Source: Candidatus Woesearchaeota archaeon (GTDB lineage Archaea; Nanobdellota; Nanobdellia; Woesearchaeales; ARS49). Taken from it: a stretch of 64,000 nucleotides of DNA. Made by a program: the position numbers and the translations under genes. The DNA lies in NCBI GenBank assembly GCA_016215315.1, contig JACRKG010000040.1, positions 3,128 to 67,127 on the forward strand, written 5' to 3'. A model generated the notes under the pieces. It saw only the letters and a list, made by a program, of their open reading frames with translations. It was not told the origin of the DNA and searched no databases. Positions 2,685-21,749 of the stretch are shown here, in pieces. Each line of letters starts with the position of its first letter. Positions within the stretch are counted from its first letter, which is position 1.

Positions 2685-2741
2685 GCAGTATCTTTTAGTA
2701 AGTGCTAATCTTTATATAATAGTTATATCTTGTTTATTTCT

Positions 2742-3479
2742 ATGAAAAAAGAAGTGATTTTAGTGTTGATAGTTTTAGTTCTAATTATTTCATGCAGTAA
2801 ACTAATTGAAAAAACAATCACTCAAGAACACATTAATTTGCCAGATAAAGAAAAAGAATTATCTCGCGGACTTGATATAAATGCTCCCGAATTGCAATCT
2901 TACGTTGAAGAACTAAAAAAAGAAGAATCAGTCTGGTTTAAAAAAATAAGTACTCCCGAAATTAAACTAACAATACAAAAAGGAAACCAATTCAGTCCTG
3001 AACAAAGCAAAAAAGTATGTGATAACACTTGTAATGCATGCAGTCAAAGACTAGGAAAAAACTTAGTTGGTGCTAAGTTGCAGCAAGAAAAAATAAAAGA
3101 AGACTCATGCACGTGCAGTTTTGATAAAGAAGTTAACGGTGGAGAATACTACTCCTGTCTTGATGAAGCAAACAGAGCAATTTATTCAGAATTATTTGAT
3201 GGACTAATAAAAAAAGATCCTTCCTTATTTCCAAAACTAAACCAAATGTATTTTATGTTTTCTAGTTATGATAAAGAAAAAGTAAACAATAACTTTTGTG
3301 ACAATATTTGCGGTTATTGCGCAACAAAATTCGGCCAAAAACTAGACTTTACAAGCGCACCAACAATAAATGAAGAAGGAGACCTACAATGCACTTGCCA
3401 AACAACAGACTTCAGCGTAAATTATTATCGTGTTAATTCTTGCGTAGCAGATTTGATAAGCATAATACCAAGCAAATAG
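2742..3479 (+). CDS. Secreted lipoprotein-like Cys-rich protein with internal domain duplication
   Basis: Hydrophobic N-terminus ending IISC; CDNTCNAC...CTC and CDNICGYC...CTC repeated. Confidence 0.65.
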   Translation: MKKEVILVLIVLVLIISCSKLIEKTITQEHINLPDKEKELSRGLDINAPELQSYVEELKKEESVWFKKISTPEIKLTIQKGNQFSPEQSKKVCDNTCNACSQRLGKNLVGAKLQQEKIKEDSCTCSFDKEVNGGEYYSCLDEANRAIYSELFDGLIKKDPSLFPKLNQMYFMFSSYDKEKVNNNFCDNICGYCATKFGQKLDFTSAPTINEEGDLQCTCQTTDFSVNYYRVNSCVADLISIIPSK

Positions 3480-3506
3480 TTTACAGTTTATGGTCTGGGT
3501 TTACGG
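3477..3506 (+). repeat. Heptamer (GTTTRYR-like) tandem repeat, dispersed family copy
   Basis: TAGTTTACAGTTTATGGTCTGGGTTTACGG, starting at the TAG stop codon. Confidence 0.6.
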
Positions 3507-3822
3507 TAAAATGATTTTGTTAACAACTTCAATCTTATTTTTTAATAATTTGAATTTTCCCCTAGCCGAACGCTCGCTTTTTGTGCTAGAAAAGTTTTTT
3601 CATGCTCTTAGCGTTCGGAACAGTGTGTCGATCTGCGGTCGAAAATTGATAATGAAAGATTTTTGTGAGTGCACTTATGAAACTCGTTGACTTTTTATCA
3701 TCTGTTAATGCCGCCAAAAGAAGAAAAGAACACAACTAGCACGCGATTCGGGGCGGCTGGAACTGAGAAAATTTAACAAATTAAAAGAATAAAAAGTGCA
3801 CTAAATGTTTTTCATAACTATT

Positions 3823-6800
3823 TCACTCACTAGTAATCTCTCCCTCAACATAAGGAGCAATAATTCTATTTTGAGGGTCTATGAATGCTCTTGCACTTAT
3901 TTTTAGCCTAAAATTTGTTCCTGGAATTCTAAAACTAAACCAATCAGGTCTAGAAGTTTCCATTCCTAAACCTTTAGTAAAATGCCAGTACAAATCAGGA
4001 GCTTTGCCAATAACATCAGCAACAAGAGCTCTTTTGATATCTGTTTCGTAACCTTGTTTTATCAAGTAGTCAATATCACCATAATTGACAACATCACTTG
4101 TATAGGATTCTAAACAATGAACTGGAAAATCCATTCCTGCAGTGAATGCAATCCAGTGACCAACTCTGTTTTCAAAAGAACCATCATCATTTTGTACTAA
4201 TCCTTCGTTAACTCTGCAATATAATTCTTGAGATGCTGCAAAACCTCCCAGAGTTATGCTTTCGTATTGTTTTTCTGTAAGTCGCGCGTTTTGACGTGTT
4301 AAACCTTTAAATAAACCGAGGTCTGGCATATTTTTGTTAGTAGTTAAGGTGCCAAAACCAACATTGATGCCCAGATCATATTGAGCAGCATAAGCTTCAG
4401 TAACATGCGCATGCCCTTCTTCATGATTCAAAACCATAAATATTTGCCCAAAATAATACGCAGCTAAAGATTCACCTAAATTCTGAAAACCGCCTTTTTC
4501 TTCAAATCTTTGCTCAGTAATTTTTTGAAAATTCTCAAATAAAGGTCTTAATTCTAAACTAGGCACTTCAGGTTCGGGAATTTCAAGTGAAGATTTTTCT
4601 TCAATTGTTTTCTCTTGCGTCAAATCTTTTTCTTCAGATTTTAATATTTCAGCAGACTTTTGCACAGGCTTTTGTGCAGGTTGTTCTATTTCTGGAAATT
4701 TAACCGTTGACTTTATTTTTTTAATAACTTTCAGTTCTTCTTTTTGTCCTTTCAGTCCTTCCTTGACGTCTTCTGTCTTTCGTGGTTCACTTAATGTTTC
4801 TAATTTCTTTCTTGCTCTTTCAACAATTTTAGAATTATCTTTATTATCTTTAATTATTTTTTTTATGAAAGCAACAGAATTTTCTCCTTTAATTTTTATG
4901 AGCTCATCAATAATTATGCCTATTGCGTATTCATAAGCTCCTTCTGCGTCATTCTCAAAAAGTCCTCTTTCTTTTGTTAAAGCGTTTATTACTTTATCAA
5001 ATTCTTGTTCATTCTCATAAAGTTCTTTAATGATTTGTAAAGCCACTTCATCAGGTAAATTGTTGGAAAATTCCACGTATTGAGTGATATTTGAAGGTAA
5101 GTATTTTTGTTTTGAAAATTCTAGGATTTTAGTTTTTTCTTCTTCACTTAAATCAGACCAAGCAGACTTAATTAGTTCGCCTAATAATTCTATTTCATTG
5201 CTTTGTATGCTGAATCTTACATAAGTCAGGAATTCTTTATTTCCTTCTTCAAATGCAGAATTTAATTTTTTATTTAAAACTGCATAAAGTACATCTATGA
5301 ATGCTTTGGTTGTTTCAGAATATGTTTGTTCTTGTTGTTTTTTTAATTCGACTAATTTATTCATTATCAGTTCAAAATTGAAAAATGAAAATAATTGTGC
5401 GAATTCTTCAAATGAAACAAAACTTAAAATTTGGTCATTAGATAATTTTTGGAAAAAATCATCTAACAATGGCTTATCATCGAATCCTATGCGTGCCAAA
5501 TCATAAAGGGCTGCCTTCATATCAATAACATTATCGGAAGAATATCTCTTCTCAATAAACTCTAGAATGGATTGTTTGACAAATTCTTTCTGTTCATCAG
5601 CGAGGTTTTCCAAGAAATATTTCAGTAACGAGTAAGTTTGTTCTTTTGTACTTAACTCTTTTAATGACTCTTTAAAGTATTCTAATAAAAACTCTTTTTT
5701 TGTTTGTTCATCTAATGGTAAACTGTTTATTGACTTGATTAATTGTACAAAGAATTCTTCAGGTATTTCTCTTTTTTCAAATTTATTTTGTGCTTTCAGA
5801 ATATTATTTAAAACGTCGCTTAATGCTTCTTTCTTTTTATCTAAGTTTAATTCTTCTAATTCTGGAGGGATTGAAAGCACAAAGTCGCTTATTTTGGTGA
5901 ATAATTTTGCAATTTCTATTATTCCAAAGAAATTATTTTCTCCAAACATAGCTATTTGATTCATTATGTAGACCTTTATCATTGTACGCCAATCACCAAT
6001 CATATATCCAATTCCTACCGATTCTGCACTGTTTATGTTGTCTGTTCGGAGTATTGTAGGATATTCTTTATGTTTATCTAATCCTAAAACATCAATTATT
6101 TTAACCATTTTTTCAAATTCATTAAATTCCATTTTCCAATTTACTTGAGTGTTGCTCATAATAGTAAAGAGTTCTTTGACTAAACGATAGACTGTTTCAG
6201 TTTTTTCTTTTGGGAAACCTAACGTTTCAACAACATTAAGTAATGCTGCCAACAATCTTCTGTATTCCCCTAGTTTGTTTTGATCAAGTTCATTGATTTT
6301 GTTCTGGCGAATTTTTTGTCTAGAATCTTCTATTAAGCTTCTTTTTCCGTTAGCTAATAAAATTAATATGTTGAAAAGTTCCTCCGTCTTTTCCTGTTTC
6401 ATGCTTTCAGGCAATAATTTTAATAAACTTGGAAGTTCATTGTAAAGCATTTGTTTAAAAGAGTCATCATCAGGTCTTTGAAAGTTATCCTTCATTCTTT
6501 GAAAGAAAATATTCATAAGTAATTCATACAAATCAACAGCGAGTGGTTGAAGTTCAGGTAAAGCTTCTATATCACTCATTAATTCATTGTAAAGAGGACC
6601 ATAATGTGCTCTATCAAGCATGTTCTCAGGTAATCTTTTAAGTTTAGCAACAACCATGGAATTAATTTCTTGAATTTCTTGGTTCTTATTCTCTATTTGA
6701 CTATGTATTAACAGCGTTATTAACCTCGCTCTCATCTGATAACAAGCACCCGCGTCTTGGTACTCCCATTTTGAAGTCTCTTTTTTTACTAATTCGTAAA

Positions 6801-9800
6801 CTTTCTCAGTAGCTTCTGCAGGATAACCTAACATTCTAACTAATTCTGGTAAATAATAAGTATTCCAATTTTGTTCATTTCCTTCAATCTGTGTTAGTAT
6901 TAAATCTAAAATCATTTTTACTTTCTCTATTTTTTTCTCAACTAAAAAATCCATTATTGAAGGTATTGCGTTGTTAATTATGTATTGTTCTCCTGTTTCT
7001 TTATACTGCTCAAGCAATGAATTAAATAATTGGTCTGCAAATTGTTTTTTATCATCCGGACTCATTTGATTGAAAAGATTGGTTGTGAGTGATAAATAAT
7101 TTCGTTTTACTACTTCAAAAATTTCAGGCTTACTTTCTCTGAGTTGTGTGAATTTCTTGTAAATCATTAAAGATGCTTTTTGCTGTTCTTCTTGATTGCC
7201 GTTATTTCTAAGGTCTTGTAAGTATTGGTTTATTATTTGATTAAATGCATTAAATAAACTAATTGAGTAAATTTCATTAGGAGACTGTTTTAAGAGCATT
7301 AAAAAATCATCAAACAACTTATTGACTTGTTCTTCAACATTGCTTTTTTGTTCTTCTTGTTGAGGTATTACTTGTGGTGGTTGTGGTGCAAATTGTTTTA
7401 GAATCGGTATTTGAGCTCCCATTGGTTTTTGCATTGCTAAAAATACTGGCTGTTCAAATGCTTGTTCTTTGAAGTAATTCATTGCTTGTTCATTATCGAT
7501 TTTGAATTCTCTAGGATGTAATGGGAAAAATTCTTTGTAACCTGTAGGATCTAAATCAAATTCCATAGGAATGTTTTCAACAGTTATTCTGACTCTGACC
7601 CATATGTGTCCTTCGGTTATTTTTTCTGTAAAACCATCAACGTACTTAACATCAATTCCTCGCTCTTTTAGTGCATGATATAATAGCGCTGCAAAGTCTC
7701 TGCAAACTCCGTTTCCTTTCAATAAGACTTCTTCCATGGGTTTGCAAAATTCTGAATGAAGTTCGTAAACTTTAACCATATCTTCAGCCAGGGAATAAAT
7801 TTTCATTACTAATTCGAGCTCGTTTTTTGATTCTAAATGTCTTATTTTATCAAGGAATGCTGCGGAAAGAGGTTCTTGAGGTGTGTAAGGATTTTTGTAG
7901 TCTTCATAATTAAAAGTAATAATTTTTGAAAGAGTTCTTAATAAACTACCTATAAAAGAAGATCCTTCATAAGAAAACTTATATATGTCAAATATTCCGT
8001 AAGAGTAATATTTTCTTTTTTCTAAATCTTGGACTGTTTCTAAAGACGATTTACTGTGTAGACCTGTCACCCAATCTTCTCCTTGTATTTGTTGAATAAA
8101 ATCAATAATTTTCTCACTAGATATGGCTTTATCACCAAACAGAGCAATATTATCTTTAATAAAAAGCAAAACTTGATCAATCAACACGGTGTTTTCTTCA
8201 AAATTAACAATTTCTGCTTTTTTCATTAAAATTAAAACAGTATTAGCATAATTTTTAACTGCTTCAGAACTATTTTTTGCAATTGATTCGATCAGAGCTT
8301 CAGGATTAAACCAAGGAAGGGTTTCTTTCTGAAGATTTAGAAGACTTAAGTGAGTTATTAATATTCTAATTATGTCGTCTTTATTTTCTTGAGGAATTTC
8401 TGAAGATTCTATTTGGATGAGAAAGTTGTTAACAAAAGAATCATTTCTAAAAATCTTATAATGGTTAGCAACAGCTTCAGTTAAAGTAAGTATTTCTGAA
8501 AGACTTAGTTCCCCAAAATTTCTAGTCAAAACACTAAATTTAACAGAAAAATCTAACATCCCTTCAGGATTATGTTTTATTTGACTTGCCAGAAGAACAT
8601 ATTTAACATCATCAATTTTATTATCTAATTCTTTTATTAGCTCAGCAGCCCAGTTATCATAAGTATTCTCTTCAACGCTAGTAAAATCAGGATTTTCTTT
8701 TTTTTGCTCAAAATAATCTCTCAAATAAAAAAAGAAATTTATTGATAATTTCTGAACTTCAATTCTAAAATTTTCATTTAATTCTTTATCAAGTGAAACA
8801 TTCATTAAAAAAGAGGCAATGCTTTCAGATATTTTCGGATCATCATAACCAAAATTTACGAGAAAATAAATTTCGCTAAGAGATAATTTTGTTTTATCTT
8901 CTGAATAAATTTTTTGTATTTCCGAAAAGAATACTTTAGAACCAAATTGGTAAATGTAGTGCCTAAATAAACTACCATTTGATGCATATTCACTTCTCAA
9001 TCTTTCAACAACTTTGGCAGTTAACTCTTCACTTAAGTTCTTGCCATCGCATAAATCAAGAATATCTTTGTAAAAATCTCTCTCTAAAGCTTCTCTCATT
9101 AAACTTTCTTTATCCTCTTTACATCTTCTGTTTATTTCATCAAGTGTAGGCTTTGTTTGAGTATATTTTTGTTCTTCTTGCTTAAGAATTGGTATTGATG
9201 CGCCCATTGGTTTCTGCATTGCTAAAAATCCTGGAACTTCTGTTTTGAGAATTGTACTTGATACTTCTTTAGGCTTCTCAGTTCTCATACTTGTTTCTTT
9301 AGGTATTTCACTAGCTTTTTCTGGTTCTGTGATGTATCTTTTTCCTTGCACTCCTTCATATTGCTTCCATATAGCTTCAAAAGTTTCTCTGGCTCTTTCT
9401 TCTTCAACTCCTTTAAATCTTTCATGTAGTGGGATGAATTCTCTATACCACGTAGGATCTAAATCAAACTCGACAAGTTTATTATTAACATTAATAGTTA
9501 CTGTAACCCACATATGGCCTGCGCCTTCGCCAACAGCATTTGAAGTTATAATTTTTGCATCAATACCTCTCAATTTCAATGCGTAGACAAGTAGTGGAGA
9601 GCGTTCTCTACAAACAGCCTTACCTTGTGTTATAAGCGTTTCAAAGTTTCGGCACATTACGTCACTTCTTTCGAAAATTGGCAATATCTTAGTCACGAAT
9701 TCATAAATCTTTTTGACCAGAATAAGGTCGTTATCTGCTTTAATATTATTAACAATTTCTATAAATGCTTTGGTGTTTGGTTCGTTAACAGTATAGGGAT

Positions 9801-12800
9801 CTTCAAAAGGCATGGACTGAGCCAGTCCTAAAATTTTTCTTGCAAGCACTTTAAAAAAAGATTCGTGGCCATAAGCAGCCCTCCTAAAAGCTAACTCAAT
9901 TTCATTATTTAATTCTTGTCTGTGCTTAAAATTTTCTTCTTCAGCTTGCATACCTTCTAATGAAGGGGGAATTTTGTAGCCTTCCTCAAAAACCTCAATA
10001 CTATCATCAGATTGAATCTGTTGAATCTTATCAATAATTTCCTCAGATGTAGCATCAGGATTGTCATTTAGAAATCTATTAATTGCTTCAATTAAATAAA
10101 TATTATAATCTGATTCAACTTCTCCAAAAAGTTGTTCTAAATGTTTTCTTGCTTCTTCAAATTGTTTTTCATTAGAAACATCTTCTGTCAATGTTGCTTT
10201 TTGTGGTTGTACTGATTCTTGCATTAAAATTGGTGGTGGAACGCTAACAGATTTTCTCATTGAAAGAATTCTGGGCGTTTCGGTTCTAAATACTGGCTTC
10301 TCAGTTCTCATGCTTGTTTCTTTGGGTTTTTCTTTTACTTGTTTATTTTTTGATCTAATGACCAATATTACTGTTTTTCCTTTGCCTGCAGTCGTAATAC
10401 TTTTTTCTGGAAGTCCTATCATTTCCTGGTAGTCTTCATTAAATGAAAAAAATAGATTTCCTTCGCTCGTAATGCCCCACTCAACAGAATCACTTCTTTT
10501 TATATCAACAGTGCTAGTTTCACCTTCTGGACTAGTTTCTGAATCGCCTTCAGACGCGTATGTTCCAGCGCCTCTTAGTCCAACAGCATGCTGTCCAAAT
10601 TCTTCATAACTCATTCCTTCCTCTTTTGGAACTTTCCAGGTGCCTTCTTTATGACCTTTTTCTATTTTCCAACTAATAACTTCAACTTCTAAATCATCAT
10701 CAAGAATGGATTCAATCCTTTCTTTCATTTTTTGAACTGCTTCTTCAAGAGGTAATTCCATTAATTCAATTAAGAAGTCTGCATTCATTAAACCGGTATT
10801 TTCCATCCACTCAATAATTCTATCAACATGATAATTGAAATTTTCTTTTTGAGGCATTCCTTCAGGAAAAAAAATGCCGACAGGAGTAATGAATGGAATT
10901 TGCAAAGTTGCAGCAATATAATCTAGCAAATCTTTAAAATTCTGCATTTCTTTAGGAGGTGTTTCTGAAGAAACACCCTTGCTGGGCGCTTTGGCGTGTT
11001 CTGACTTTAATATTTCATTAGCTGTATTGACAAAACCTTTAGCAACACCATCCTTGAAAATGGGGAAATGATTAATTTTGGGTTTGTCAGAAATATAAAA
11101 CAATTCTGTTGGTTGTTTAGTTTGGATTGAGCTAACTTCTTTAGGTTTTGTGTTAAATAATCTTTCTAATTCTCGTTTGGCTGCTTTTCTAACAACTTCT
11201 GATGTGTGCTTGTTTAGTTCTTCAAGCACTTTTTGTTTTCTGTGCTTAACATTTTCTTCATCAACTGTCCATTCTGGAAATAGATTGTTTATTAAAGAAT
11301 AATGCGCGGAATCTTCTGAAAAGTTGTTCACTAATTGCAATACTTTCTTGAAATCTTCTCCTGAACCGTATTTTAACAAATAATGAAGATTCTTTGTTCT
11401 AAAGTATTCACTTAAATTTTCATCAAAAATAAACTCTCGTAATGCTTTGAGTAAAACTTGTTTAACTTGTTCTTTAAAAGATTCAGAATTTGTTATTTTA
11501 ATAAGTTGATCCAGATTAAAAAATCCGTTACTTACCTCTTCAAGAGAACTTTCTTTTTTTATTTGTTCTTCAGAGAAAGCCAAATGACGTAAATCTTGTT
11601 CGGATGGTGGTTCAGTTGACGTAATCTTTTTTTCTTTTGTGGGTACTTCTTCAAAACTCATAAAGTGTTCAACGATTTTGCGGGCTGATTCTCTGATGCT
11701 AGATTCCTCTTCAGGATTATTTGCTATTTCTTCAAGAACTTTTATGGCTTTTTCGTCATTAACAGATAATGTATTGATGATAATTTCCATTATTGCTTCA
11801 TAACTTAAGCCAGAATTATTTACTGCCTGTTCTATTAAATTTTCATCGTAATAAATTCTTCTTAATTCTTCAATGGATTTTTCAAAAGGAAGAAATGCTA
11901 CAAAATTTATGAATGCCGCGAAGTATTTCGGCAGCAAGAATGATTTTGCTAGATCGTAGTATTTTGCAAGTTCTGTTTCTTCAGTAGTGGAGACTTTTTT
12001 CTCCAAAAGTTCAAGCAAATAATCTCTTGCACGATAAGAATTACTTCTTATGTTGGCATTTTCTCCAGTTTCACTCCAATAATTGAATGTATTGATTAGC
12101 AAGATAAGCGTTCCAACATCTAAATTTACCTCAGTTAATTGATTTTTAATTGATGAGTTTTTGAAAGGTTCTCTTGCTATTCTTTCTTTTAATAATTCTT
12201 CTAAAATATCTAATGCGGGGTTTGATCCTATTTTTGCTAATATTTTTATTGCTAATTCTGTTCCTAAATTTTTTATTATTAATCTATATAATTCAATACT
12301 GTCTTCTTCAGTTATAACAACTGAAAGATCTTGAACTATTAGCAATAATCTTTGTTCATATTCAACTCCTCCAGATTTATTGAATAATATTTCTTTTAAG
12401 AACGCAATTCTTTGTTCGTAAGGGAGTCGTATTAAATCTTTTACTAAAAGAGAGCTATCAAAATTTATTAAATTTGTAATGGCTAAGTCTCTTATTTCTT
12501 TTTCTAGTTCTTGATTTAATGCGATCTGCATCAGTTCAGGATAGCTAAAACCTTTAGCACCTCTGTGGAGTGCTTCTTTTTTAATATCAAGGTCTATTCT
12601 TTGGTCGAGGATTATTTCTTGAAAGAAACTTGGTGCTAGAGTGCCTAATGCTTCAATAATAGTTCTTTTTGCATAACTGCTTAATTGAGGATTTAAGAGT
12701 AATTCTTTAAATTTGTTAGTTCCTTCTTTGTTTAATAATGCTCTTATTGCGCTAGATCTAACCTCTAAAGGAACATTCGTATCTGGTACAACTGAGATTA

Positions 12801-15800
12801 ATAAGTCTATTAATTCTGGTGTGTCTAGAAGTTCTTTGGCGAGCCATAATTGCTCTGCAATCAGAATTTTATAGTATTTGTGCAGTTCGGGTATATTTAG
12901 TAGTTTTTTTAAAACTTCAAATTTGCCGTTTTCACTTAAAATTTGTATGATTTGATCATTTATTTCATATAAGTCCAAATCATACGGTCTTTGTTTTATG
13001 ATATATTCAAGTGTCGATTCAGCTTCTGGAAATGTTTTAATAATTTCTCTTTTCTCGTATTTATTTAGTCTGTTTGAATCTAATATTTTCTCTAATATTT
13101 CAGTCCTTTCAACAGGACTTAATTCATACTTCAAAATTTCTTCTTTAAAAAATTTGGCAAATGATCCTATGTTCTCAAAACTTTGCAAATTAATAATTAA
13201 ACCTATAAACCATGATAAGAATTTTCTATTTTCTTCTTTGTGTATTGCTGTTTTCAAGAAATCCAGGGCAGAATATGCAAAATCTGCTTTTACTTGTCTG
13301 AGCTTCATGATTTTTTTAATTAAATATAATTTATTTAAATCGCTAACATTCGGATTTTTAAATAATTCAAATAAATGGTTGACATCGTACCAAGATAGTA
13401 TTTCAATAAAAGCACCCTCGTTGCCTTTTGTTACTGGAGTTATCAGTTCTTTTTTTATTAATTCCATTAATTCAGAGTGCTCTTTTAAAAATTGTTGTTG
13501 ATTGAGAAAAATGTACAAATGAATTATTATTCTTAATTTTATTTCATCACTGACATTTGGATTGAATAATAATTCTTTCAAATCTTGAAAGTTTGTTTCA
13601 TCACCTTTCGGTCCTGCCAAAACGTATAATGCACTTATTTTATCTTCAAGAGTTTTATCAGGATCTAGAACTGTTTTTTTTGCATCAGACGATTCTTCTT
13701 CAGGAGATTTAACTCCTGATATCCAATCCCAAGTTCTTCCAAACCATCCTTTTTGTTCAGATTTTAGTATTGATGTTGGCTGTTTTGATGGTATTTCTTG
13801 TACTGGGTATTTTTGTTCTGATTTTACAACTTTGATTTGTTTTGTGATTTCTCTTTTTCCTTCTTCAGAAATTCCTGCTGGAATTTCTCCGGGTGATTCT
13901 TCAACTGATGCTTGAATTTTTTCTCCGAAATTCAATTTCAATAATTTTAGTAAGCTTTCTCTTAGTCCGATGTCTTCTATTCTTGAAATTAAATCATAGA
14001 ATTCTTGTGTTGGTGGAATTCTTTTTTGAACTATTAAATTAACTAGTTGTGCAAGTAATTGTTTTGTTTTGTTTACTAATTTTGGTTTTGGTGCGTAAGG
14101 ACTATCTGAATCTGGAAGTAAATCAGTTATTTTTTTGATTTCTGTTAACGCGTTTATTAAATTAATATATGTTTCTTGAGCTTGCTCAGTACTTAATTCT
14201 AGTCTTGATAAAGAATTAATTTGTTCTTGAATGTATTCTAATAATTTGGTGACTTGATCGTCAATTTGTTGACTATAAATGTTTGATGGAAGCGTTCCTT
14301 CCGAGTATTTCTCGTTAATATTTGCATGGCTTAATAGTGTTGTAAGGGTTTTTAGTAATTCTGAAACATTGAGATTTTCTCCTCTTTCAAGAGCGCTTAG
14401 CAGGTAATAAAATCCGAAATCTTTTAGCAAGAAATAAGCTTTTGTTGTTAGTTCAGGAGGGAATTTAGTCATTTCTAATAATTGGTAAATTAAGTAAGCC
14501 ACTCCAGGACTTACGTTTGGTAACGTTCTTTCCTTCAGTCCTATTTCGAGTTGTGAAAATAATTCGTTCAATATTTGTATTGCTTTCTCTTTTTTCCTGT
14601 CATCAGGCAAGTACTTAATTATTTCAAGTAATAAGCCACCTTCTTTTATTCTATCTTGGTATAATTTGTGTAATTCGGTGAAAATTAGTGAAGAATATGC
14701 TTCTTTCGTTTTTTCTGTCATTAAGCTATAGACTTCAAGCAAATATTTTTCTTTAGCTTTAAGAGGTATTTCTGATATTGATGTAAAAAGATCAAACAAG
14801 TCATACAAGTAGTTTTGTCTGTGTTCTTCAGATAATAGCTTTGCTAATTCTAGCAAGTCCAAGTGAAAGTCCATTCCTAAACTTCTTGTAAGTTTAAGTC
14901 TTGTGGGTTCTTTTGTGCATTCTTTATCCCCGCATTTAGTGAATTCAAGTGTTTCGTATTCAGTTATGATGATTGAAGTTATGAAATAATTATATCGTTT
15001 ATATAAATTTAATAACATTTCAAAATAAGCTTGAACATCTCTTTCGTTTGATAATAAACTTATTCGGTCTTTGTAGCTTTGCAATCTTCCAAGCAGTCTT
15101 CTTGCAACAAAAGTATTTAGTTTTTCTTCATCGGTTAGTTCTGGATCAAACTCAGTTAGTGCGGGGAATTCTCCGCTGTTTATTAATTCGTCCATTAATT
15201 TCTTTGCTTCTTCAGGATTGTTATAGAATGAATTAATCATTTCATCAATTTCATTAATTAGTCCGGTTAATTCTGCTTTGACTTTTTGTTCATCAACAGG
15301 TTTCACTTCTTCTTTTGTTACTTCTTCAGTTTTTAATACTTCAACAGGCTTTCTTACTGTGCCGATTTGTGTTTTGAGAATCCTGGCGGATTCTCCGGGT
15401 GTTTTTTTGTCTACTGATTCTTTTTCAGCTCTTTTATTTTTGATTTCTTCAAATAATTTTTGTAAACTAATAATTGATTTTATTTTTTCAAATTCATTAT
15501 TTGCTCGTTCTTTGACAAATTGTTTTTGATCATCAGGCAAAGTCTCGTGTTTTTCTAAATATTCATTGATTTTTTGAATAAATTTGTCTGCAAATTCATT
15601 CTTTTCATCGTTATTGAAACCACTGAAAGAATTAATAAAACTTGAAGCATGTCTTGATAGCCTGAAAAGATTTTCTGGACTCAAATTATTTATGTTTTCT
15701 AAAAAGTAATTGAGCGTTTTGATAGTTACTTGTTTTAGAACTGTTTCTTCTTGAGTGTCTTTTACAAGAAGATGATAATACAAGAAATTATCTAAAAAGT

Positions 15801-18800
15801 CTTTAACCTCTTCCTCGGAAAGACTTGAATAATTTATGGCTAATAAATCTTCGTAAAGCGCTAAAATTATTCCTTTTTCTTCATCGCTTGCAGTGTCTTT
15901 TATATCATATGATGTTTTGTAAAGTGCAAGAAGGAATTGCGTTTTTTCGCTTTCAGTCAAACTCGATTTGTTTTCCTTGAAAAATGCAAAAAGCTTCAAG
16001 GATGCTTCTCTGTTTAGTTCTGTTTTTTCTTCTTTGGTTAGAAAGTTTCCAAACAAAACTCGATCAATTAATTTGAATAATTCTGAGACTTTTTCAGTTG
16101 ATAAAGTTTTTTTGTTATTCTCAAAATGTTCCAATAGTTTTCTTGCAATTTTTTGTATTAATTGTCTTCCTTCTTCTGAAACGCGATTTTCTCCTGTAAC
16201 ATCAACTAATTCTCCTTTTTGTATTGTTTGGTATGTTGGCATTAAATTTACTGAAAGAATATCGTCTAGCATCTTTAAAAGTTCAAAATTGGAAAATAAT
16301 TCTTCTGTGTGATTATCAAAAAGTTCGTTTAGCGAGTTGACAATTCTTTGTGCTAATTGATCTTCATTTTCTATGTTAAATTTGTAAAGGACCGTGTTTA
16401 AGAGTTGTAGAATGCCTAAAGATTCGGATAATGTTAACTGATTTTTTTGTGTTTCATATTTGAGTGATAAATCTTCAAATATGAACATGATATTTTCAGG
16501 ATTCATTGCTTCTGGAGAAATATTTGTTATTGTTTCTAAAGCATATAAAATTAGGTGTGTCTCGCCTAAAGCTAATGTGTCTTTGTTGTCGATATAGATT
16601 CCTAAAATTGTTTCAGCAAGCAAGGACAAATTCATCTCGCTTAATTTAACACTTTCTTTAAATCTTAGAAGCTCTAAACCTTGAGCGATTGTTAGCAAAG
16701 ACGTAACCAATTCATTGAAAGGCTTATTTTTTTCACGAATAAAAACATTAATCAGATCTTTAACTGTTTTTGCTAAATCTGGTTCCACAACTTTTTCAGG
16801 GGGTGCTTCTGGAGCTGCACTTTTTAGTATTGAAGGCAAATTAAATGGTTCTCTTCCAATGCGTGTTGCCAAAAATGGAGAAATTGTTTCCAATTTATAA
16901 CTTGTCTTTTTTGGTTTGTACTTCTCGAGTTTTTCTAAATCTTTTTGCACTTCTGCATCTTTTTCATACGTGCTTCTCATTTCGAGTTTGTTAATGAAGT
17001 TGTCTAGTATTATCGTTTTTTGTTCTTCACCGAGTTCTGAGCCGGACAATATTTCTTCGAGAAGTTCAATGATTTCGTTTCTTAAATCTCTATTTTCTAT
17101 TTGATATAAAAGTTCTAAAGATTCTACAACTTCTTTTATTACTCCATCAGGGATATTTTTTATCAGAATTATCTCTTTTAGTGCTTCAAGTGTTCCCGAA
17201 GGAGGAACTTCATAATCAGTTACTACGCCGCTGTTTAAAATGAAATTTCTAATTAATTTAATTTTTTGTGCTTCACTTAAAGCAGGATCCTGCATTTGTT
17301 CTGTGAGTGTTGGAATAACCTCTAGTTTAATTTTTATTTTTTTCCACAAATAATAAAATGAGTCGATAACATCATCCACAATAGGTATTCTTTCACTAGT
17401 CAATATTCCCGGATTCTTTTTTTCAGGAACGACTTCTTGTCCTTTTAGTTTGTCAATGATCTTTTTAACTTTTTCAAAGTCTCCTTCTTGTAATGCTTTT
17501 GCTAGTTCTGCTTTTCTTAATTCTGGTAAAGAAAGTTGGGAGCTTACTGCAGGCATTCTTCCTGGACCACATTTTGCGCAATCAACACACGTACCTTTTT
17601 CATTCACGTATTTTGCTTGAGCTAAAGGACATTTTATGCATTTAACACTCTCCAGAACTGCGTTTAAGATGGCAACTGATGCTTTGACTCCTGATAAGGA
17701 AGCTCTAACATTTTGGTGTGCTGCATAATTAACAAAAGTATTACCAACCATTGCTTTAAAGATAGAACTTCTAATTTCTCCACCAATACTATTTGCGTGT
17801 GCTTTTGCTTGGTTAATTCCTTTTTTGAATTCTTCATCGTAAAATTTAACTAATTCAATTTCTTGCTTTGCCTTATCTAAATAATTATTAACTCCGGGGC
17901 ATGCTGCTTGAGGCATTGCTTCTAAGACAGAATTTAAAGAATCAACAAGCACTTGGTTGTTAACATTGTCGAATGTTTTAATGCTGTCTTGTAAATCATA
18001 TTTTAGATTTGTTGGAGTGATTTTGTTCATTGCTTTCTTTAAGTTTTCCAAATCCCTTGATTTTTGTTTTTCTCCTCTTTGTTTTGATTGTCTTATGGCA
18101 AAATCAGTGTCCCATCCTTCAGCGTCGAATAATTTAGAAATAAACTCTTCAGTGAATGGTGAAGCTCCATATACTAAGTGTTTGTAAGCATCATTCAAAT
18201 TGCCGTTTGCTTGATTGATTTGGTTAACGGCATTCATTAAAGCAATAATTGCAGAATCATCAGAACAAGTGCTCAAGTATTGTTTTGCTTTTTCTATTTC
18301 TGGGTCTAATGGAGGCAAGCATTGACTTATTTTGTTTATTTCACCAACAGCGTTGTTATCTTCTTGAACTTTTATTAATCCTTCAATGAAATTCATTACT
18401 CCGCCGTAAATTTGGTCAAATAACCATTTTTCAGGATCTTGCTGAGTTGCCTTGCCGGTTAAAAGATTCCTTGCGGAATCTTTATTTTTTTGTTCTTCTT
18501 CATATTCTTTTATTGCGTCAGCAATATCAATAATAATTGGTTTTTCTTTGTCTTTTTTCACGAAAGGCATTAGTGGCCATTGAGGTATTGGTGCAATAGG
18601 CCAAACGCCAGAACTTAAAATGTATTTACAATCGATTCCTTTTGGTGGCTGTGGTTTGTCCATGCAGTCGGGGCATTGTTTTAAGCAAACAAGTCCTTGT
18701 TGTAAGTTTTCTAAGAAATTCTGCGGGGAGTTTTCCTTCGGAAAACTAGCAACAGATTCAGTTGAAGGAACACAGTCCTGTTTTACTGGATCGCAACCGT

Positions 18801-19797
18801 TAGGGCAGTAAGTACTTCTTAATCTGTTAATTGTTCCTTCGCAACTAAAATGATTAAGAACTTTATCATTGCAATAATCGGGGTAACTTTCTGCTTTTGT
18901 TTGAGTGTTTCCTTTTTCATCGAGCCATACTTCTCCAATTTCGATATGTAATGGATTTTTTAGTTCAATGCAGTAATTGCTTTTTTTACTTTTATCGAAA
19001 CAATTATTTTCTAAAGAATTACAACCATACTGGCATTCAACAATTTCTGAACCTTTACAAGTAAACTTTAACAGTTGATTCCCTTGGCATTTATTTTCTT
19101 GTAATGTTTGTCTTCCGTCAGGGTAAGAATATTTAGCACCTTCAACAGTATCTTCACAACTTACTTGTCTGCAAGCTCCATCAAAACAAGAAAACTCAAC
19201 TTTCTTGCCTGGAGAAACTTCTATTTCAGGACAATAAATATTTTCCTCCTTAGAAAAACCTTTTTCATCACAAGAGTATTCTTTTAAAAAAAGATTTCCG
19301 TTTTCGTCAAATAAACATATATCTTCTTCACGAAATGGCTCGTTAGTAATAGTAACACCTGTGACCTGACCTGGCACGAGAGCAGGCATAATTTCATCTC
19401 CATCGCTATCAGTACATGTTGATTCTACTAGTTCTTGTGTTGCTTTTGGACAATCTTCAGGACAAGTGAGTTCGTTTTCTGCTGGTTTATTGTACACTCC
19501 TTCTCTATCACAGTATTTATCCCCGCAAAAGCCTGTAAGAATTAGTTCTTTTGGAGGAATTTTAGGAGGTAATGATGGTTGAGTGGGTTTTTCTTGAGGA
19601 ATTTCGTAGACTGGCTGTGGAGTGTAGTATTCAGTTGGTGGTTGTATTGTTTGTAATTCTTGGTTGGTGGGTGGTGGGTTGAAATCTGAAGGGAAATCAC
19701 TAACAGGTCTTCCTGTAATTGTGTAAGAAAGTGCGGTAGTTAAGGGTAGATTTATGAATAGTAAAATGACTAAAATAGCAAAAATTTTTTGATTCAT
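3823..19797 (-). CDS. Giant (5324 aa) secreted multidomain protein: signal peptide, Pro linker, Cys-rich repeats, helical/HEAT-like repeats, two transglutaminase-like domains, C-terminal HEEGH zincin-like domain
   Basis: Uninterrupted 15,975-nt ORF; SD GAGGT and TATA-like TTTATAAA upstream; GxxVCR..GHxW..DLDPT twice; HEEGH at 4411-4425. Confidence 0.9.
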   Translation of the reverse strand: MNQKIFAILVILLFINLPLTTALSYTITGRPVSDFPSDFNPPPTNQELQTIQPPTEYYTPQPVYEIPQEKPTQPSLPPKIPPKELILTGFCGDKYCDREGVYNKPAENELTCPEDCPKATQELVESTCTDSDGDEIMPALVPGQVTGVTITNEPFREEDICLFDENGNLFLKEYSCDEKGFSKEENIYCPEIEVSPGKKVEFSCFDGACRQVSCEDTVEGAKYSYPDGRQTLQENKCQGNQLLKFTCKGSEIVECQYGCNSLENNCFDKSKKSNYCIELKNPLHIEIGEVWLDEKGNTQTKAESYPDYCNDKVLNHFSCEGTINRLRSTYCPNGCDPVKQDCVPSTESVASFPKENSPQNFLENLQQGLVCLKQCPDCMDKPQPPKGIDCKYILSSGVWPIAPIPQWPLMPFVKKDKEKPIIIDIADAIKEYEEEQKNKDSARNLLTGKATQQDPEKWLFDQIYGGVMNFIEGLIKVQEDNNAVGEINKISQCLPPLDPEIEKAKQYLSTCSDDSAIIALMNAVNQINQANGNLNDAYKHLVYGASPFTEEFISKLFDAEGWDTDFAIRQSKQRGEKQKSRDLENLKKAMNKITPTNLKYDLQDSIKTFDNVNNQVLVDSLNSVLEAMPQAACPGVNNYLDKAKQEIELVKFYDEEFKKGINQAKAHANSIGGEIRSSIFKAMVGNTFVNYAAHQNVRASLSGVKASVAILNAVLESVKCIKCPLAQAKYVNEKGTCVDCAKCGPGRMPAVSSQLSLPELRKAELAKALQEGDFEKVKKIIDKLKGQEVVPEKKNPGILTSERIPIVDDVIDSFYYLWKKIKIKLEVIPTLTEQMQDPALSEAQKIKLIRNFILNSGVVTDYEVPPSGTLEALKEIILIKNIPDGVIKEVVESLELLYQIENRDLRNEIIELLEEILSGSELGEEQKTIILDNFINKLEMRSTYEKDAEVQKDLEKLEKYKPKKTSYKLETISPFLATRIGREPFNLPSILKSAAPEAPPEKVVEPDLAKTVKDLINVFIREKNKPFNELVTSLLTIAQGLELLRFKESVKLSEMNLSLLAETILGIYIDNKDTLALGETHLILYALETITNISPEAMNPENIMFIFEDLSLKYETQKNQLTLSESLGILQLLNTVLYKFNIENEDQLAQRIVNSLNELFDNHTEELFSNFELLKMLDDILSVNLMPTYQTIQKGELVDVTGENRVSEEGRQLIQKIARKLLEHFENNKKTLSTEKVSELFKLIDRVLFGNFLTKEEKTELNREASLKLFAFFKENKSSLTESEKTQFLLALYKTSYDIKDTASDEEKGIILALYEDLLAINYSSLSEEEVKDFLDNFLYYHLLVKDTQEETVLKQVTIKTLNYFLENINNLSPENLFRLSRHASSFINSFSGFNNDEKNEFADKFIQKINEYLEKHETLPDDQKQFVKERANNEFEKIKSIISLQKLFEEIKNKRAEKESVDKKTPGESARILKTQIGTVRKPVEVLKTEEVTKEEVKPVDEQKVKAELTGLINEIDEMINSFYNNPEEAKKLMDELINSGEFPALTEFDPELTDEEKLNTFVARRLLGRLQSYKDRISLLSNERDVQAYFEMLLNLYKRYNYFITSIIITEYETLEFTKCGDKECTKEPTRLKLTRSLGMDFHLDLLELAKLLSEEHRQNYLYDLFDLFTSISEIPLKAKEKYLLEVYSLMTEKTKEAYSSLIFTELHKLYQDRIKEGGLLLEIIKYLPDDRKKEKAIQILNELFSQLEIGLKERTLPNVSPGVAYLIYQLLEMTKFPPELTTKAYFLLKDFGFYYLLSALERGENLNVSELLKTLTTLLSHANINEKYSEGTLPSNIYSQQIDDQVTKLLEYIQEQINSLSRLELSTEQAQETYINLINALTEIKKITDLLPDSDSPYAPKPKLVNKTKQLLAQLVNLIVQKRIPPTQEFYDLISRIEDIGLRESLLKLLKLNFGEKIQASVEESPGEIPAGISEEGKREITKQIKVVKSEQKYPVQEIPSKQPTSILKSEQKGWFGRTWDWISGVKSPEEESSDAKKTVLDPDKTLEDKISALYVLAGPKGDETNFQDLKELLFNPNVSDEIKLRIIIHLYIFLNQQQFLKEHSELMELIKKELITPVTKGNEGAFIEILSWYDVNHLFELFKNPNVSDLNKLYLIKKIMKLRQVKADFAYSALDFLKTAIHKEENRKFLSWFIGLIINLQSFENIGSFAKFFKEEILKYELSPVERTEILEKILDSNRLNKYEKREIIKTFPEAESTLEYIIKQRPYDLDLYEINDQIIQILSENGKFEVLKKLLNIPELHKYYKILIAEQLWLAKELLDTPELIDLLISVVPDTNVPLEVRSSAIRALLNKEGTNKFKELLLNPQLSSYAKRTIIEALGTLAPSFFQEIILDQRIDLDIKKEALHRGAKGFSYPELMQIALNQELEKEIRDLAITNLINFDSSLLVKDLIRLPYEQRIAFLKEILFNKSGGVEYEQRLLLIVQDLSVVITEEDSIELYRLIIKNLGTELAIKILAKIGSNPALDILEELLKERIAREPFKNSSIKNQLTEVNLDVGTLILLINTFNYWSETGENANIRSNSYRARDYLLELLEKKVSTTEETELAKYYDLAKSFLLPKYFAAFINFVAFLPFEKSIEELRRIYYDENLIEQAVNNSGLSYEAIMEIIINTLSVNDEKAIKVLEEIANNPEEESSIRESARKIVEHFMSFEEVPTKEKKITSTEPPSEQDLRHLAFSEEQIKKESSLEEVSNGFFNLDQLIKITNSESFKEQVKQVLLKALREFIFDENLSEYFRTKNLHYLLKYGSGEDFKKVLQLVNNFSEDSAHYSLINNLFPEWTVDEENVKHRKQKVLEELNKHTSEVVRKAAKRELERLFNTKPKEVSSIQTKQPTELFYISDKPKINHFPIFKDGVAKGFVNTANEILKSEHAKAPSKGVSSETPPKEMQNFKDLLDYIAATLQIPFITPVGIFFPEGMPQKENFNYHVDRIIEWMENTGLMNADFLIELMELPLEEAVQKMKERIESILDDDLEVEVISWKIEKGHKEGTWKVPKEEGMSYEEFGQHAVGLRGAGTYASEGDSETSPEGETSTVDIKRSDSVEWGITSEGNLFFSFNEDYQEMIGLPEKSITTAGKGKTVILVIRSKNKQVKEKPKETSMRTEKPVFRTETPRILSMRKSVSVPPPILMQESVQPQKATLTEDVSNEKQFEEARKHLEQLFGEVESDYNIYLIEAINRFLNDNPDATSEEIIDKIQQIQSDDSIEVFEEGYKIPPSLEGMQAEEENFKHRQELNNEIELAFRRAAYGHESFFKVLARKILGLAQSMPFEDPYTVNEPNTKAFIEIVNNIKADNDLILVKKIYEFVTKILPIFERSDVMCRNFETLITQGKAVCRERSPLLVYALKLRGIDAKIITSNAVGEGAGHMWVTVTINVNNKLVEFDLDPTWYREFIPLHERFKGVEEERARETFEAIWKQYEGVQGKRYITEPEKASEIPKETSMRTEKPKEVSSTILKTEVPGFLAMQKPMGASIPILKQEEQKYTQTKPTLDEINRRCKEDKESLMREALERDFYKDILDLCDGKNLSEELTAKVVERLRSEYASNGSLFRHYIYQFGSKVFFSEIQKIYSEDKTKLSLSEIYFLVNFGYDDPKISESIASFLMNVSLDKELNENFRIEVQKLSINFFFYLRDYFEQKKENPDFTSVEENTYDNWAAELIKELDNKIDDVKYVLLASQIKHNPEGMLDFSVKFSVLTRNFGELSLSEILTLTEAVANHYKIFRNDSFVNNFLIQIESSEIPQENKDDIIRILITHLSLLNLQKETLPWFNPEALIESIAKNSSEAVKNYANTVLILMKKAEIVNFEENTVLIDQVLLFIKDNIALFGDKAISSEKIIDFIQQIQGEDWVTGLHSKSSLETVQDLEKRKYYSYGIFDIYKFSYEGSSFIGSLLRTLSKIITFNYEDYKNPYTPQEPLSAAFLDKIRHLESKNELELVMKIYSLAEDMVKVYELHSEFCKPMEEVLLKGNGVCRDFAALLYHALKERGIDVKYVDGFTEKITEGHIWVRVRITVENIPMEFDLDPTGYKEFFPLHPREFKIDNEQAMNYFKEQAFEQPVFLAMQKPMGAQIPILKQFAPQPPQVIPQQEEQKSNVEEQVNKLFDDFLMLLKQSPNEIYSISLFNAFNQIINQYLQDLRNNGNQEEQQKASLMIYKKFTQLRESKPEIFEVVKRNYLSLTTNLFNQMSPDDKKQFADQLFNSLLEQYKETGEQYIINNAIPSIMDFLVEKKIEKVKMILDLILTQIEGNEQNWNTYYLPELVRMLGYPAEATEKVYELVKKETSKWEYQDAGACYQMRARLITLLIHSQIENKNQEIQEINSMVVAKLKRLPENMLDRAHYGPLYNELMSDIEALPELQPLAVDLYELLMNIFFQRMKDNFQRPDDDSFKQMLYNELPSLLKLLPESMKQEKTEELFNILILLANGKRSLIEDSRQKIRQNKINELDQNKLGEYRRLLAALLNVVETLGFPKEKTETVYRLVKELFTIMSNTQVNWKMEFNEFEKMVKIIDVLGLDKHKEYPTILRTDNINSAESVGIGYMIGDWRTMIKVYIMNQIAMFGENNFFGIIEIAKLFTKISDFVLSIPPELEELNLDKKKEALSDVLNNILKAQNKFEKREIPEEFFVQLIKSINSLPLDEQTKKEFLLEYFKESLKELSTKEQTYSLLKYFLENLADEQKEFVKQSILEFIEKRYSSDNVIDMKAALYDLARIGFDDKPLLDDFFQKLSNDQILSFVSFEEFAQLFSFFNFELIMNKLVELKKQQEQTYSETTKAFIDVLYAVLNKKLNSAFEEGNKEFLTYVRFSIQSNEIELLGELIKSAWSDLSEEEKTKILEFSKQKYLPSNITQYVEFSNNLPDEVALQIIKELYENEQEFDKVINALTKERGLFENDAEGAYEYAIGIIIDELIKIKGENSVAFIKKIIKDNKDNSKIVERARKKLETLSEPRKTEDVKEGLKGQKEELKVIKKIKSTVKFPEIEQPAQKPVQKSAEILKSEEKDLTQEKTIEEKSSLEIPEPEVPSLELRPLFENFQKITEQRFEEKGGFQNLGESLAAYYFGQIFMVLNHEEGHAHVTEAYAAQYDLGINVGFGTLTTNKNMPDLGLFKGLTRQNARLTEKQYESITLGGFAASQELYCRVNEGLVQNDDGSFENRVGHWIAFTAGMDFPVHCLESYTSDVVNYGDIDYLIKQGYETDIKRALVADVIGKAPDLYWHFTKGLGMETSRPDWFSFRIPGTNFRLKISARAFIDPQNRIIAPYVEGEITSE

Positions 19798-19973
19798 CCA
19801 AAAACCTCTTTTATACCTGTTTTATGCAAGTTTTGTTTATAAATATTTGTGTTTAAAAGAATATTTGAGCTCACACAGTTCGCTCAAAAATATTCTTTTT
19901 GAACTGATTAGTTCTCAGATAAATACTAATATAATACTTATTAGTATTCTTTTGAGAACTAGCAATCTGTTGA

Positions 19974-21413: not shown

Positions 21414-21509
21414 TAAAAAACACTGTGTGTTTTTCTTTTATAAATCTTTTTAGACATATCTGCTTGAAAAGCGAAATCTTTAAATAAACGTACGTGTACA
21501 CGTATATTT

Positions 21510-21749
21510 ATGGTTACTAAAACATTGACAATAATGGAAGATGTATATGGTCTTTTATTGAGAAATAAACGAGAAGAAGAAAGTTTTTCTGAAGAATTAA
21601 GAAGATTGCTTTCTGTAAAAAAAAGAGATCCTATGGAGTTATTTGGTTTGATTTCTGAGGAGCAAGGAGATAAGATGCTTGAAGATCTTAAAAGAATAAA
21701 AGAAGAAAACATAAAATTACAAAAACAGAGGCTTAAATGGAACTTTTAG
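21510..21749 (+). CDS. vapB: VapB-type antitoxin (UPF0330/DUF217-like)
   Basis: TKTLTIMEDVYGLL...ESFSEELRRLL; overlaps a PIN toxin gene. Confidence 0.75.
   Translation: MVTKTLTIMEDVYGLLLRNKREEESFSEELRRLLSVKKRDPMELFGLISEEQGDKMLEDLKRIKEENIKLQKQRLKWNF

Follow-up and report, generated by a model that had tools for sequence, protein, structure and literature searches.

A giant, putatively secreted archaeal protein divided by a recurrent linker motif, with modules that appear to be exchanged as cassettes

A single reverse-strand gene fills one quarter of the 64,000-nucleotide stretch of DNA analysed here (the window: GenBank assembly GCA_016215315.1, contig JACRKG010000040.1, positions 3,128 to 67,127, from a Candidatus Woesearchaeota archaeon), and encodes a protein of 5,324 amino acids (aa). 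Overall, and with a probability that we put at roughly 0.4, we read its product as a fast-evolving accessory exoprotein made by a groundwater archaeon of DPANN type (Woesearchaeota-like), built like beads on a string and probably cut at a short motif that recurs in its linkers. Two observations carry this reading: the motif is strongly enriched and sits between modules, and in a relative of the gene, here called L003, the order of the modules changes at or next to it.

The open reading frame (ORF) is unbroken over all 5,324 codons, the runner-up in the window being only 536 aa long. At a GC content of ~31%, ~8% of random codons would be stops; chance can therefore not explain so long an open frame. 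GC is even along the gene (0.29-0.345) and like that of the remainder of the window, and the identical 5,324-aa protein is present in NCBI nr, from an NCBI contig of 69,254 bp.

The chain reads as a succession of modules (Table 1). The only part with a Kyte-Doolittle window above 1.6 is aa 1-25 (MNQKIFAILVILLFINLPLTTA/LS), a predicted signal peptide whose hydrophobic segment is conserved in L003; a class III (pilin-type) signal was dismissed, there being neither Gly nor Ala ahead of the hydrophobic stretch. After the Pro-rich spacer comes a head that contains 26 of the 45 Cys of the protein and matches nothing in Pfam. All of the head Cys are retained in L003 despite an overall identity of 54%, and a disulfide-rich head with conserved Cys fits an extracellular protein. 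The five long modules H1 to H5 have a helical hydrophobic periodicity above that of shuffled controls and a low Pro+Gly content, which is crude support for helicity. For H4 there is more: with aa 2300-2700 scored alone, HEAT_2 (PF13646) matches in two stretches at 29.3 bits (cut-off 27.7; E 1.1e-6), falling below the cut-off when the whole protein is scored, and HEAT_PBS is weak; among the five, a match above cut-off was obtained for H4. The first 400 aa of H1, which includes a CxxC...CxxCxxC cluster at aa 720-743, are 72% identical to L003, and the start of H4 is 41-44% identical. The sole outside relative of H5 is a 117-aa protein from a Nanoarchaeota metagenome-assembled genome (MAG) that matches aa 4884-4999 (E 5.7e-4), and the small module M6 has no family match in Pfam or NCBIfam and an unreliable AlphaFold2 model. 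Scans against Pfam, NCBIfam, PHROG and PADLOC yielded only PF01841, PF04473 and HEAT_2 above cut-off, leaving ~85% of the chain without annotation.

Much of this outline had been drawn in an earlier note on this DNA, and it holds up well: the giant frame filling a quarter of the window, the Pro linker, the Cys-rich repeats (placed at ~18630-19530, here 18622-19536), the HEAT-like repeats (~11170-12900) and the two transglutaminase-like domains are all borne out, as is the signal peptide in its quality of a prediction. The thousands of helical residues that the note described have the crude support just given. Its surface appendage is not established, and no membrane or cell-wall anchor was found in the protein beyond the N-terminal segment.

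What divides the chain is a feature of the linkers. These are hydrophilic and rich in Pro, Lys, Glu, Thr and Ser, and they carry the peptide I-L-K-[S/T/Q], in most cases followed by Glu. Nine sites fit the expression IL[KM][STQ] where 0.8 are expected, a number reached by 0 of 5,000 shuffles; two more, ILTSE and VLKTE, were added by eye and are not counted in these statistics. The motif occurs 1.69 times per 1,000 aa in the giant protein vs 0.15 times in the remaining ORFs of the window, and each of the 11 sites (the nine together with the two found by eye) sits in a hydrophilic linker between modules. Because the codons vary synonymously from site to site, the motif is conserved as a peptide and not as a DNA repeat. 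We regard it as a built-in border marker that divides the 5,324 residues into about ten units.

The second line of evidence comes from comparison. Among 185,579 species genomes, the only relative of the giant gene that was found is L003, on contig JACRAI010000012.1 of the archaeal MAG NC_groundwater_1589_Pr3_B-0.1um_32_8, whose source is a 0.1 um groundwater filter and which stems from a groundwater survey of CPR (Candidate Phyla Radiation) and DPANN organisms (He et al. 2021, PMC7906910). In one continuous frame, L003 runs through the counterparts of aa 22-431 (54% identity), 442-803 (72%), 3833-4134 and 2002-2392 (41%), and then reaches the end of its contig. The third of these, the cassette that holds the core of the second transglutaminase-like module, is 81% identical in amino acids and 89% in nucleotides, so that identity between the two proteins spans 41%-81% from module to module. 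The first switch falls directly after the motif (...GQEVVPKEKTSEILTTEQEKP/IESIAKN... in L003, ...GQEVVPEKKNPGILTSER/IPIV... in the window); the second falls inside it, where L003 reads ...PVPILKTEQKGWFG..., a hybrid of ...IPILKQ (aa 4132) and ...SILKSEQKGWFG (aa 2010) of the window. The motif thus lies at three of the four breakpoint flanks, and at both linker sites that are visible in L003 it is retained while the adjacent linker residues have diverged. Judged from these alignments, the gene reads as a mosaic whose modules are exchanged as cassettes at the motif, and the comparison is natural evidence that the units can be swapped.

A closer relative of the genome itself, L004 (GCA_053530895.1, contig JAIYRY010000035.1), shares 72-91% nucleotide identity with the window over the syntenic blocks, and 84-91% over most. 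Collinearity with the window lasts until iPGM, after which L004 goes on with sequence found in the window immediately downstream of the giant gene; at this syntenic locus, and the statement is limited to it, the 16-kb giant gene is absent. Because so close a relative does without it here, the gene appears to be accessory.

Taken together, these observations suggest the following scheme. A Sec-type N-terminal signal would export the chain, which would then present in order the Pro spacer, the triple-repeat disulfide head, five HEAT-like scaffolds, an alpha/beta module, two transglutaminase-fold modules and a C-terminal H-E-x-x-H...D domain. The ILK motif would be a recognition site, and the chain would be cut between Lys and the following residue of I-L-K-[S/T/Q]-E, with Leu at P2 and Lys at P1. 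The cutter would be one of the protein's own hydrolase modules, with the transglutaminase/papain-like Cys modules as first candidate and the C-terminal metal-site domain as second. In this way one gene could equip the cell surface or the symbiont-host interface with a set of individual modules for binding and catalysis, and cassettes would be swappable at the motif with the processing scheme intact. The transglutaminase fold is papain-like, papain-like Cys peptidases choose mainly a hydrophobic P2 residue, and transglutaminase-fold proteases of the LapG type trim giant adhesins. We favour proteolytic processing because a five-residue peptide that stays constant amid diverging, disordered linkers resembles polyprotein cleavage sites, because cassette exchange at the motif would retain such sites, because the last module is found elsewhere as a secreted protein in its own right, and because the protein has candidate proteases of its own. 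The secreted polyprotein that the earlier note had proposed gains indirect support from the motif at module borders and from the reshuffling there.

Several points weigh against this reading. Instead of marking a cut, the motif could just as well serve for docking, as a hinge or for cross-linking. It is missing from one clear linker (aa 2702-2748), and at one site each it is followed by Ala or Phe instead of Glu. The reshuffling is a single comparison with a gene truncated at a contig end, and its fourth flank, the left edge of the exchanged transglutaminase cassette (aa ~3836), lies in a helical region and not at a motif. The signal peptide was called by eye. Domains of the transglutaminase (PF01841) fold may cross-link, may act as amidases or may be inactive, and the fold model of this region reaches a predicted local distance difference test (pLDDT) of only 40. 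Finally, window 3584-8194 (aa 3869-5324) lies outside the coverage of the independent assembly considered below.

It is also possible, though in our view unlikely, that the protein is never cut. It would then be a surface fibre or adhesin of ~610 kDa, reaching out from the cell as a flexible string of scaffolds and enzymes, with the N-terminal segment as a membrane anchor, the Pro spacer crossing the envelope and the ILK motif serving as a hinge cap or docking site. The lone N-terminal hydrophobic segment with a 64-aa Pro-rich spacer right after it would suit such a fibre, as would HEAT-like scaffolds, which are apt for protein binding; the giant SPEARE proteins of other DPANN archaea, moreover, are seen mostly in gel fractions >315 kDa (PMC6642349). 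On the other hand, the sequence T-T-A followed by L-S resembles a normal signal-peptidase site and is conserved in L003, and Pfam detects no adhesin-type domain. An uncut fibre also leaves unexplained why a five-residue peptide should stay constant in diverging linkers and why cassettes should switch there.

The candidates for the cutter that processing would call for begin with the two transglutaminase-like modules. Each passes the PF01841 cut-off of 23 bits when scored alone, module 1 with 24.1 bits (E 4.7e-5) and module 2 with 32.0 bits (E 1.6e-7), and jointly they reach E 7.8e-13; module 2 also passes PF04473 (20.7 bits, cut-off 20.5). The Cys, His and Asp motifs GxxVC(R), GH(I/M)WV and FDLDPT are present in canonical order in both modules and in L003. 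The modules are paralogous (aa 3306-3540 vs 3940-4135, 35% identity, E 1.6e-37) and are followed by the same tail, FLAMQKPMGAxIPILKQ. That the giant protein includes two Cys-His-Asp enzyme modules is, on these sequence grounds, well supported. Structure prediction adds little: the AlphaFold2 model of aa 2960-3545 is unreliable and its Foldseek matches are meaningless, so that this part of the structural check proposed in the earlier note is uninformative. A profile search of PDB finds an arylamine N-acetyltransferase as the best match, at the Cys motif and with only E 0.036; that enzyme has its Cys-His-Asp fold in common with the transglutaminases. A further Cys stands 14 residues before the catalytic one in both modules and in L003, forming an invariant C-x13-C pair, and may provide a redox switch by which the active site is masked.

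Transglutaminase-like modules with intact triads could do something else altogether. They might join Lys and Gln of the linkers (ILKQ, ILMQ, AMQKP) to each other or to host proteins, and so build a self-cross-linking matrix, a covalent attachment plaque or sheath. The linkers are rich in Lys and Gln, three copies of the motif have Gln right after Lys or Met with hydrophobic residues before, and the shared tail follows both modules; Gln after hydrophobic residues resembles the context favoured in Q-substrates of microbial transglutaminases. We nonetheless consider a matrix improbable. Most copies of the motif have Ser or Thr, so Gln is not its conserved element; in L003 the MQKPMG part of the tail is replaced by TRLPTSPP while ILK is retained; and most prokaryotic PF01841 proteins of known activity are hydrolases.

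The second candidate, the C-terminal domain, defines a small, uncharacterised and seemingly secreted family with an invariant His/Gly-His/Asp site. In an exhaustive HMMER scan with aa 4133-5324 as query against 1.84 billion representative proteins, the matches were the protein itself, the 117-aa relative of H5 and five small proteins of 237-370 aa, which align only to aa ~5070-5322 (E 6.5e-33 to 5.5e-5). All five of these stand-alone homologues open with a signal peptide or lipobox, and the cluster of one contains MBS3158038.1 from Ca. Woesearchaeota; a profile search with the family brought up a single member, one of those already known. His5125, Gly5128, His5129, Gly5185, Tyr5193, Gly5221 and Asp5223 are invariant in the six sequences. 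The motif HEEGH occurs once in the giant protein, and 3 of the 6 members carry an extra residue within HExxH (HESNGH, HEGNGH, HDLAGH), with Asp replacing Glu in one. No Pfam family, peptidase models included, matches the domain or its homologues, and the domain has no NCBIfam match. The terminal zincin-like motif of the earlier note is thus present as HEEGH; no peptidase hidden Markov model backs it and its spacing varies within the family, and 'zincin' is a doubtful label for the domain.

For this domain, the proposed structural check was more informative. The AlphaFold2 model (pLDDT 77, predicted template modelling score 0.76) has a long HEEGH helix, then a three-stranded sheet, helices with the invariant Gly and G-x-D, and a C-terminal beta-hairpin. 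The top Foldseek match in PDB is the site-2 protease MJ0392 (3b4r_A; E 0.077, probability 0.91, template modelling (TM) score 0.34-0.39), with SpoIVFB fourth; in BFVD a phage SpoIVFB-like protein comes first (E 0.13); and a PDB profile search places 3b4r_A first, at the HExxH helix, with a non-significant E of 2.3. Three agreeing but non-significant searches make the likeness to M50 proteases a faint lead, not a membership. After aa 25 no hydrophobic window exceeds 1.6, so the domain has no membrane helices. The genes adjoining the stand-alone homologue in the Woesearchaeota MAG are unrelated to the modules of the giant; one of them (L007 11211-11765) resembles, on inspection by eye, a signal peptidase of type I (motifs SMDP...GD...HR...GDN) and has no Pfam hit. 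Within the window, a 429-aa ORF (648-1937, forward strand) with HECMGH and no Pfam family was considered as kin of the C-terminal domain and ruled out (hhalign probability 2.8%).

All of this presupposes that the gene is assembled correctly. A Logan single-run assembly (SRR12113407), made independently, is 100% identical to window 9974-27440, and by record length the same contig reaches ~8194 and so takes in aa 1-3868; the downstream flank, as far as 3584, is present on a second Logan contig. The earlier note had named a chimeric assembly, seen in long reads, among the outcomes that would refute its description, and against this the independent contig matches aa 1-3868, with aa 3869-5324 unmatched. 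Two or more large genes of related strains might have been fused in frame, likeliest in or after the second transglutaminase cassette: the Logan contig stops ~100 nt from 8292, where L003 changes from module H1 to this cassette, the guessed continuation product past the contig end is not on record, and the order of modules in L003 is different. We think this very unlikely, and it would concern the last 27% of the gene. The Logan contig passes the point at 8292, so that the arrangement of the window there was assembled independently; in L003 the cassette (aa 3833-4134) is contiguous across the position of the contig end; and the linkers of the C-terminal part are of the same style and carry the same motif (at 4132 and 5051). 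A scan of the gene for tandem repeats and for long exact repeats that could collapse an assembly found none, its internal DNA repeats being only diverged ~100-nt pairs (70-72% identity) within the two paralogous transglutaminase-like modules, and its GC is uniform. The cassette is the most similar part between the window and L003 genomes, and the break at 8194 could be explained by co-occurring strain variants that share it.

Table 1. Positions of the features discussed, in window coordinates unless another locus is named
Feature	Residues (aa)	Position	Strand	Remarks
Whole giant ORF	5,324 aa + stop codon	3823..19797	-	ATG start, uninterrupted frame
Upstream region		19798..19850	-	TATA-like TTTATAAA (19836-19843) and GAGG Shine-Dalgarno-like site (19804-19810), read from sequence
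Signal-peptide-like N-terminus	1-23	19729..19797	-	possible cleavage site TTA/LS
Pro-rich spacer	24-87	19537..19728	-	length and sequence vary in L003
Cys-rich head	88-392	18622..19536	-	CGDxYCD...CPEDC cap, three 6-Cys repeats, 4-Cys tail
Helical module H1	393-976	16870..18621	-	no Pfam family above cut-off
Linker motif ILTSE	798	17392..17406	-	by-eye variant; L003 has the motif here, module switch just after
Linker motif ILKSA	990	16816..16830	-	
Helical module H2	1005-1460	15418..16785	-	no Pfam match
Linker with ILKTQ and VLKTE	1473, 1487	15325..15381	-	VLKTE is a by-eye variant
Helical module H3	1500-1968	13894..15300	-	no significant Pfam match
Linker motif ILKSE	2010	13756..13770	-	conserved QKGWFG after it
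Helical module H4	2019-2918	11044..13743	-	HEAT repeats ~aa 2306-2540 (12178-12882)
Linker motif ILKSE	2929	10999..11013	-	
Module M6	2961-3145	10363..10917	-	small, mixed alpha/beta
Linker motif ILMQE	3190	10216..10230	-	
Transglutaminase-like module 1	3218-3479	9361..10146	-	Cys3396, His3428, Asp in FDLDPT (aa 3444-3449)
C-x13-C pair, module 1	3382/3396	9610-9666		
Linker with ILKTE and ILKQE	3516, 3537	9175..9252	-	includes tail FLAMQKPMGAxIPILKQ
Transglutaminase-like module 2	3545-4114	7456..9165	-	helical N-part and core; Cys4032, His4064, Asp in FDLDPT (aa 4080-4085)
C-x13-C pair, module 2	4018/4032	7702-7758		
Linker motif ILKQF	4132	7390..7404	-	module-switch point in L003
Helical module H5	4160-5015	4753..7320	-	
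Linker motif ILKSE	5051	4633..4647	-	
C-terminal domain	5104-5324	3826..4488	-	HEEGH aa 5125-5129 (4411-4425), invariant Asp5223
Non-coding element 1		3485-3680		between giant-gene stop codon and ORF 2730-3479; conserved 9-bp stem CCGAACGCT...AGCGTTCGG
Non-coding element 2		3690-3775		between giant-gene stop codon and ORF 2730-3479; GCCGCC...GGCGGC stem
Toxin-antitoxin/AbiEii genes, window		21510-22123; 2177-2518		VapB/PIN; MqsA/MazE-like
Toxin-antitoxin/AbiEii genes, L002		110-738		
Toxin-antitoxin/AbiEii genes, L004		11656-12158; 14234-14676; 20211-20870		

Beyond L003 and the homologues of single modules, of which the named ones belong to Ca. Woesearchaeota and Nanoarchaeota MAGs, the searches returned little. 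In PDB no sequence matched a query of 5,000 aa or one of the N-terminal 600 aa. Word-indexed searches with aa 4133-5324 and aa 2933-4132 were likewise empty and missed even L003; they are a weak negative, the database being evidently without contig-end fragments of giant genes. Two JGI (Joint Genome Institute) metagenome scans with alignments of the N-terminus and of the HEAT start, and a viral-contig scan with the transglutaminase alignment, found no relative. Pfam and NCBIfam detect no adhesin, glycosidase or lytic domain in the protein, and no fold or family match points to any module as acting on host envelopes. An origin from a phage or defence system was ruled out, NCBIfam, PHROGs and PADLOC being without a significant match.

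The window encodes the archaeal markers L21e, S19e, L31e, Rpo4, deoxyhypusine synthase and SepF. Given the filter origin of L003 and the lineages of the named module homologues, the archaeon that carries the gene is very probably of DPANN type. Upstream of the giant gene, region 19677-19847 is 78% identical to the region preceding the gene of L003, and we infer a candidate promoter from its TATA-like and GAGG stretches. Toxin-antitoxin and AbiEii genes crowd the surroundings of the giant gene and the corresponding place in L004, with toxin-antitoxin genes flanking the region in both, a density that fits a variable genomic region. Small ORFs around the gene (5-568, 2730-3479, 28180-29049 and 29122-29727, forward strand) have signal- or lipobox-like N-termini, are Cys- or Pro-rich and match no Pfam family; additional exported proteins of this variable region may be encoded here. 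Between the stop codon of the giant gene and the nearest of these lie two conserved non-coding elements. Element 1 recurs in inverted form directly after iPGM in L004 (19314-19499, 72% identity) and element 2 recurs elsewhere in L004 (1961-2041, 78% identity); neither belongs to an Rfam family or folds better than its shuffles. Farther away, a 536-aa ORF (48875-50485, forward strand) with TROVE (E 5.6e-12) and Ro60-type vWA (E 7.2e-15) domains encodes a Ro60-like RNA-binding protein, with no Y-RNA-like Rfam match within the window, and a free-standing LAGLIDADG-like ORF with a C-terminal helix-turn-helix (40981-41895, reverse strand) is also present in L004, within a blastn block.

DPANN archaea depend on hosts, the molecules of contact are almost unknown, and giant genes are the main candidates; such genes are hard to dissect because their module borders and processing sites are undefined. 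If the motif is a cleavage site, an archaeal case would be at hand in which to test directly whether such a gene yields a single giant protein or many products, and the transglutaminase-fold enzymes would gain a new specificity. An accessory status would suit a role in host range or in an arms race. In the literature searched we found no description of the motif-delimited architecture, the natural cassette shuffling, the dual transglutaminase-like modules or the orphan C-terminal family, and we regard these as new.

Giant extracytoplasmic proteins as such are known from DPANN and other ultra-small symbionts (PMC6642349; PMC8204110; doi 10.1101/2023.11.21.568195). The SPEARE proteins of Nanohaloarchaeota (Hamm et al. 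2019) have 3,300-8,550 aa, a protease module and a proposed role in host contact, and resemble the present protein in being very long, multi-domain DPANN proteins that are mostly extracytoplasmic (PMC6642349). The domains that define them (serine protease, laminin-G/adhesion, type III restriction enzyme) and their end transmembrane segment were not found in the giant by Pfam and hydropathy, and no sequence relation was detected. The fam00969 proteins of Woesearchaeota and Pacearchaeota carry a murein-transglycosylase domain, are extracellular and reach ~3,000 aa; the binding or degradation of host walls has been proposed as their role (Castelle et al. 2021, PMC8204110). The likeness is that of large extracellular enzymes in small-genome DPANN lineages; the giant is without an SLT-type match in Pfam and NCBIfam, and its enzyme modules are of transglutaminase fold instead. 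The 'Archaeovorins' of Omnitrophota are likewise giant multi-enzyme proteins of ultra-small predatory or symbiotic cells, whose internal peptidase domains raise the question of whether they are cut into products (West-Roberts et al. 2023 preprint, doi 10.1101/2023.11.21.568195). They differ in being bacterial, in their size (10,000-85,000 aa and over), in their many transmembrane segments and in their glycosyl hydrolases/transferases and C39/S8 peptidases, and no cleavage motif has been defined for them. With SPEARE, fam00969 and the Omnitrophota giants, the present protein thus shares neither defining domains nor detectable sequence relatives.

In the logic of its design the protein is like the autoprocessing MARTX toxins and the LapG/LapA pair, though their defining features are missing from it. 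As for the C-terminal domain, its model has an H-E-x-x-H helix, then a beta-sheet and later a helix with invariant G-x-D, an order that would fit the metal site of M50 enzymes, an HExxH helix with a downstream Asp-containing (LDG-type) helix; these enzymes are multi-pass membrane proteins, whereas the domain has no hydrophobic helices and matches them only at TM 0.3-0.39 and E 0.08-2.3. LapG is a separate periplasmic protease that cuts the giant adhesin LapA at a di-alanine linker site, and the pairing of a transglutaminase-fold Cys-His-Asp protease with a giant surface protein and a short linker motif would be shared under the reading favoured here; membership in the LapG family is unsupported, the NCBIfam model reaching only E 0.072 against the giant. 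Vibrio and its relatives secrete MARTX toxins of 3,500-5,300 aa, whose effector modules are set apart by unstructured linkers, cut out by an internal cysteine protease at a short Leu-containing site and swapped by recombination from strain to strain. The likeness to the present protein, with its linker-separated and exchangeable modules, is one of analogy and not of homology: MARTX toxins are bacterial, leave by type I secretion, contain RTX repeats and rely on a C80 protease of clan CD that inositol hexakisphosphate activates. The giant shows none of these features; its candidate protease is of transglutaminase fold and its predicted export signal of the Sec type. We nonetheless put forward, as a tentative and rather doubtful extension of the reading favoured here, that this would be the first archaeal secreted polyprotein to process itself, in which its own transglutaminase-fold or M50-like protease would cut after the Lys of I-L-K-[S/T]-E and release a kit of binding and enzyme modules at the host interface, with cassettes exchanged between strains at the motif: an independently evolved counterpart of the MARTX toxins.

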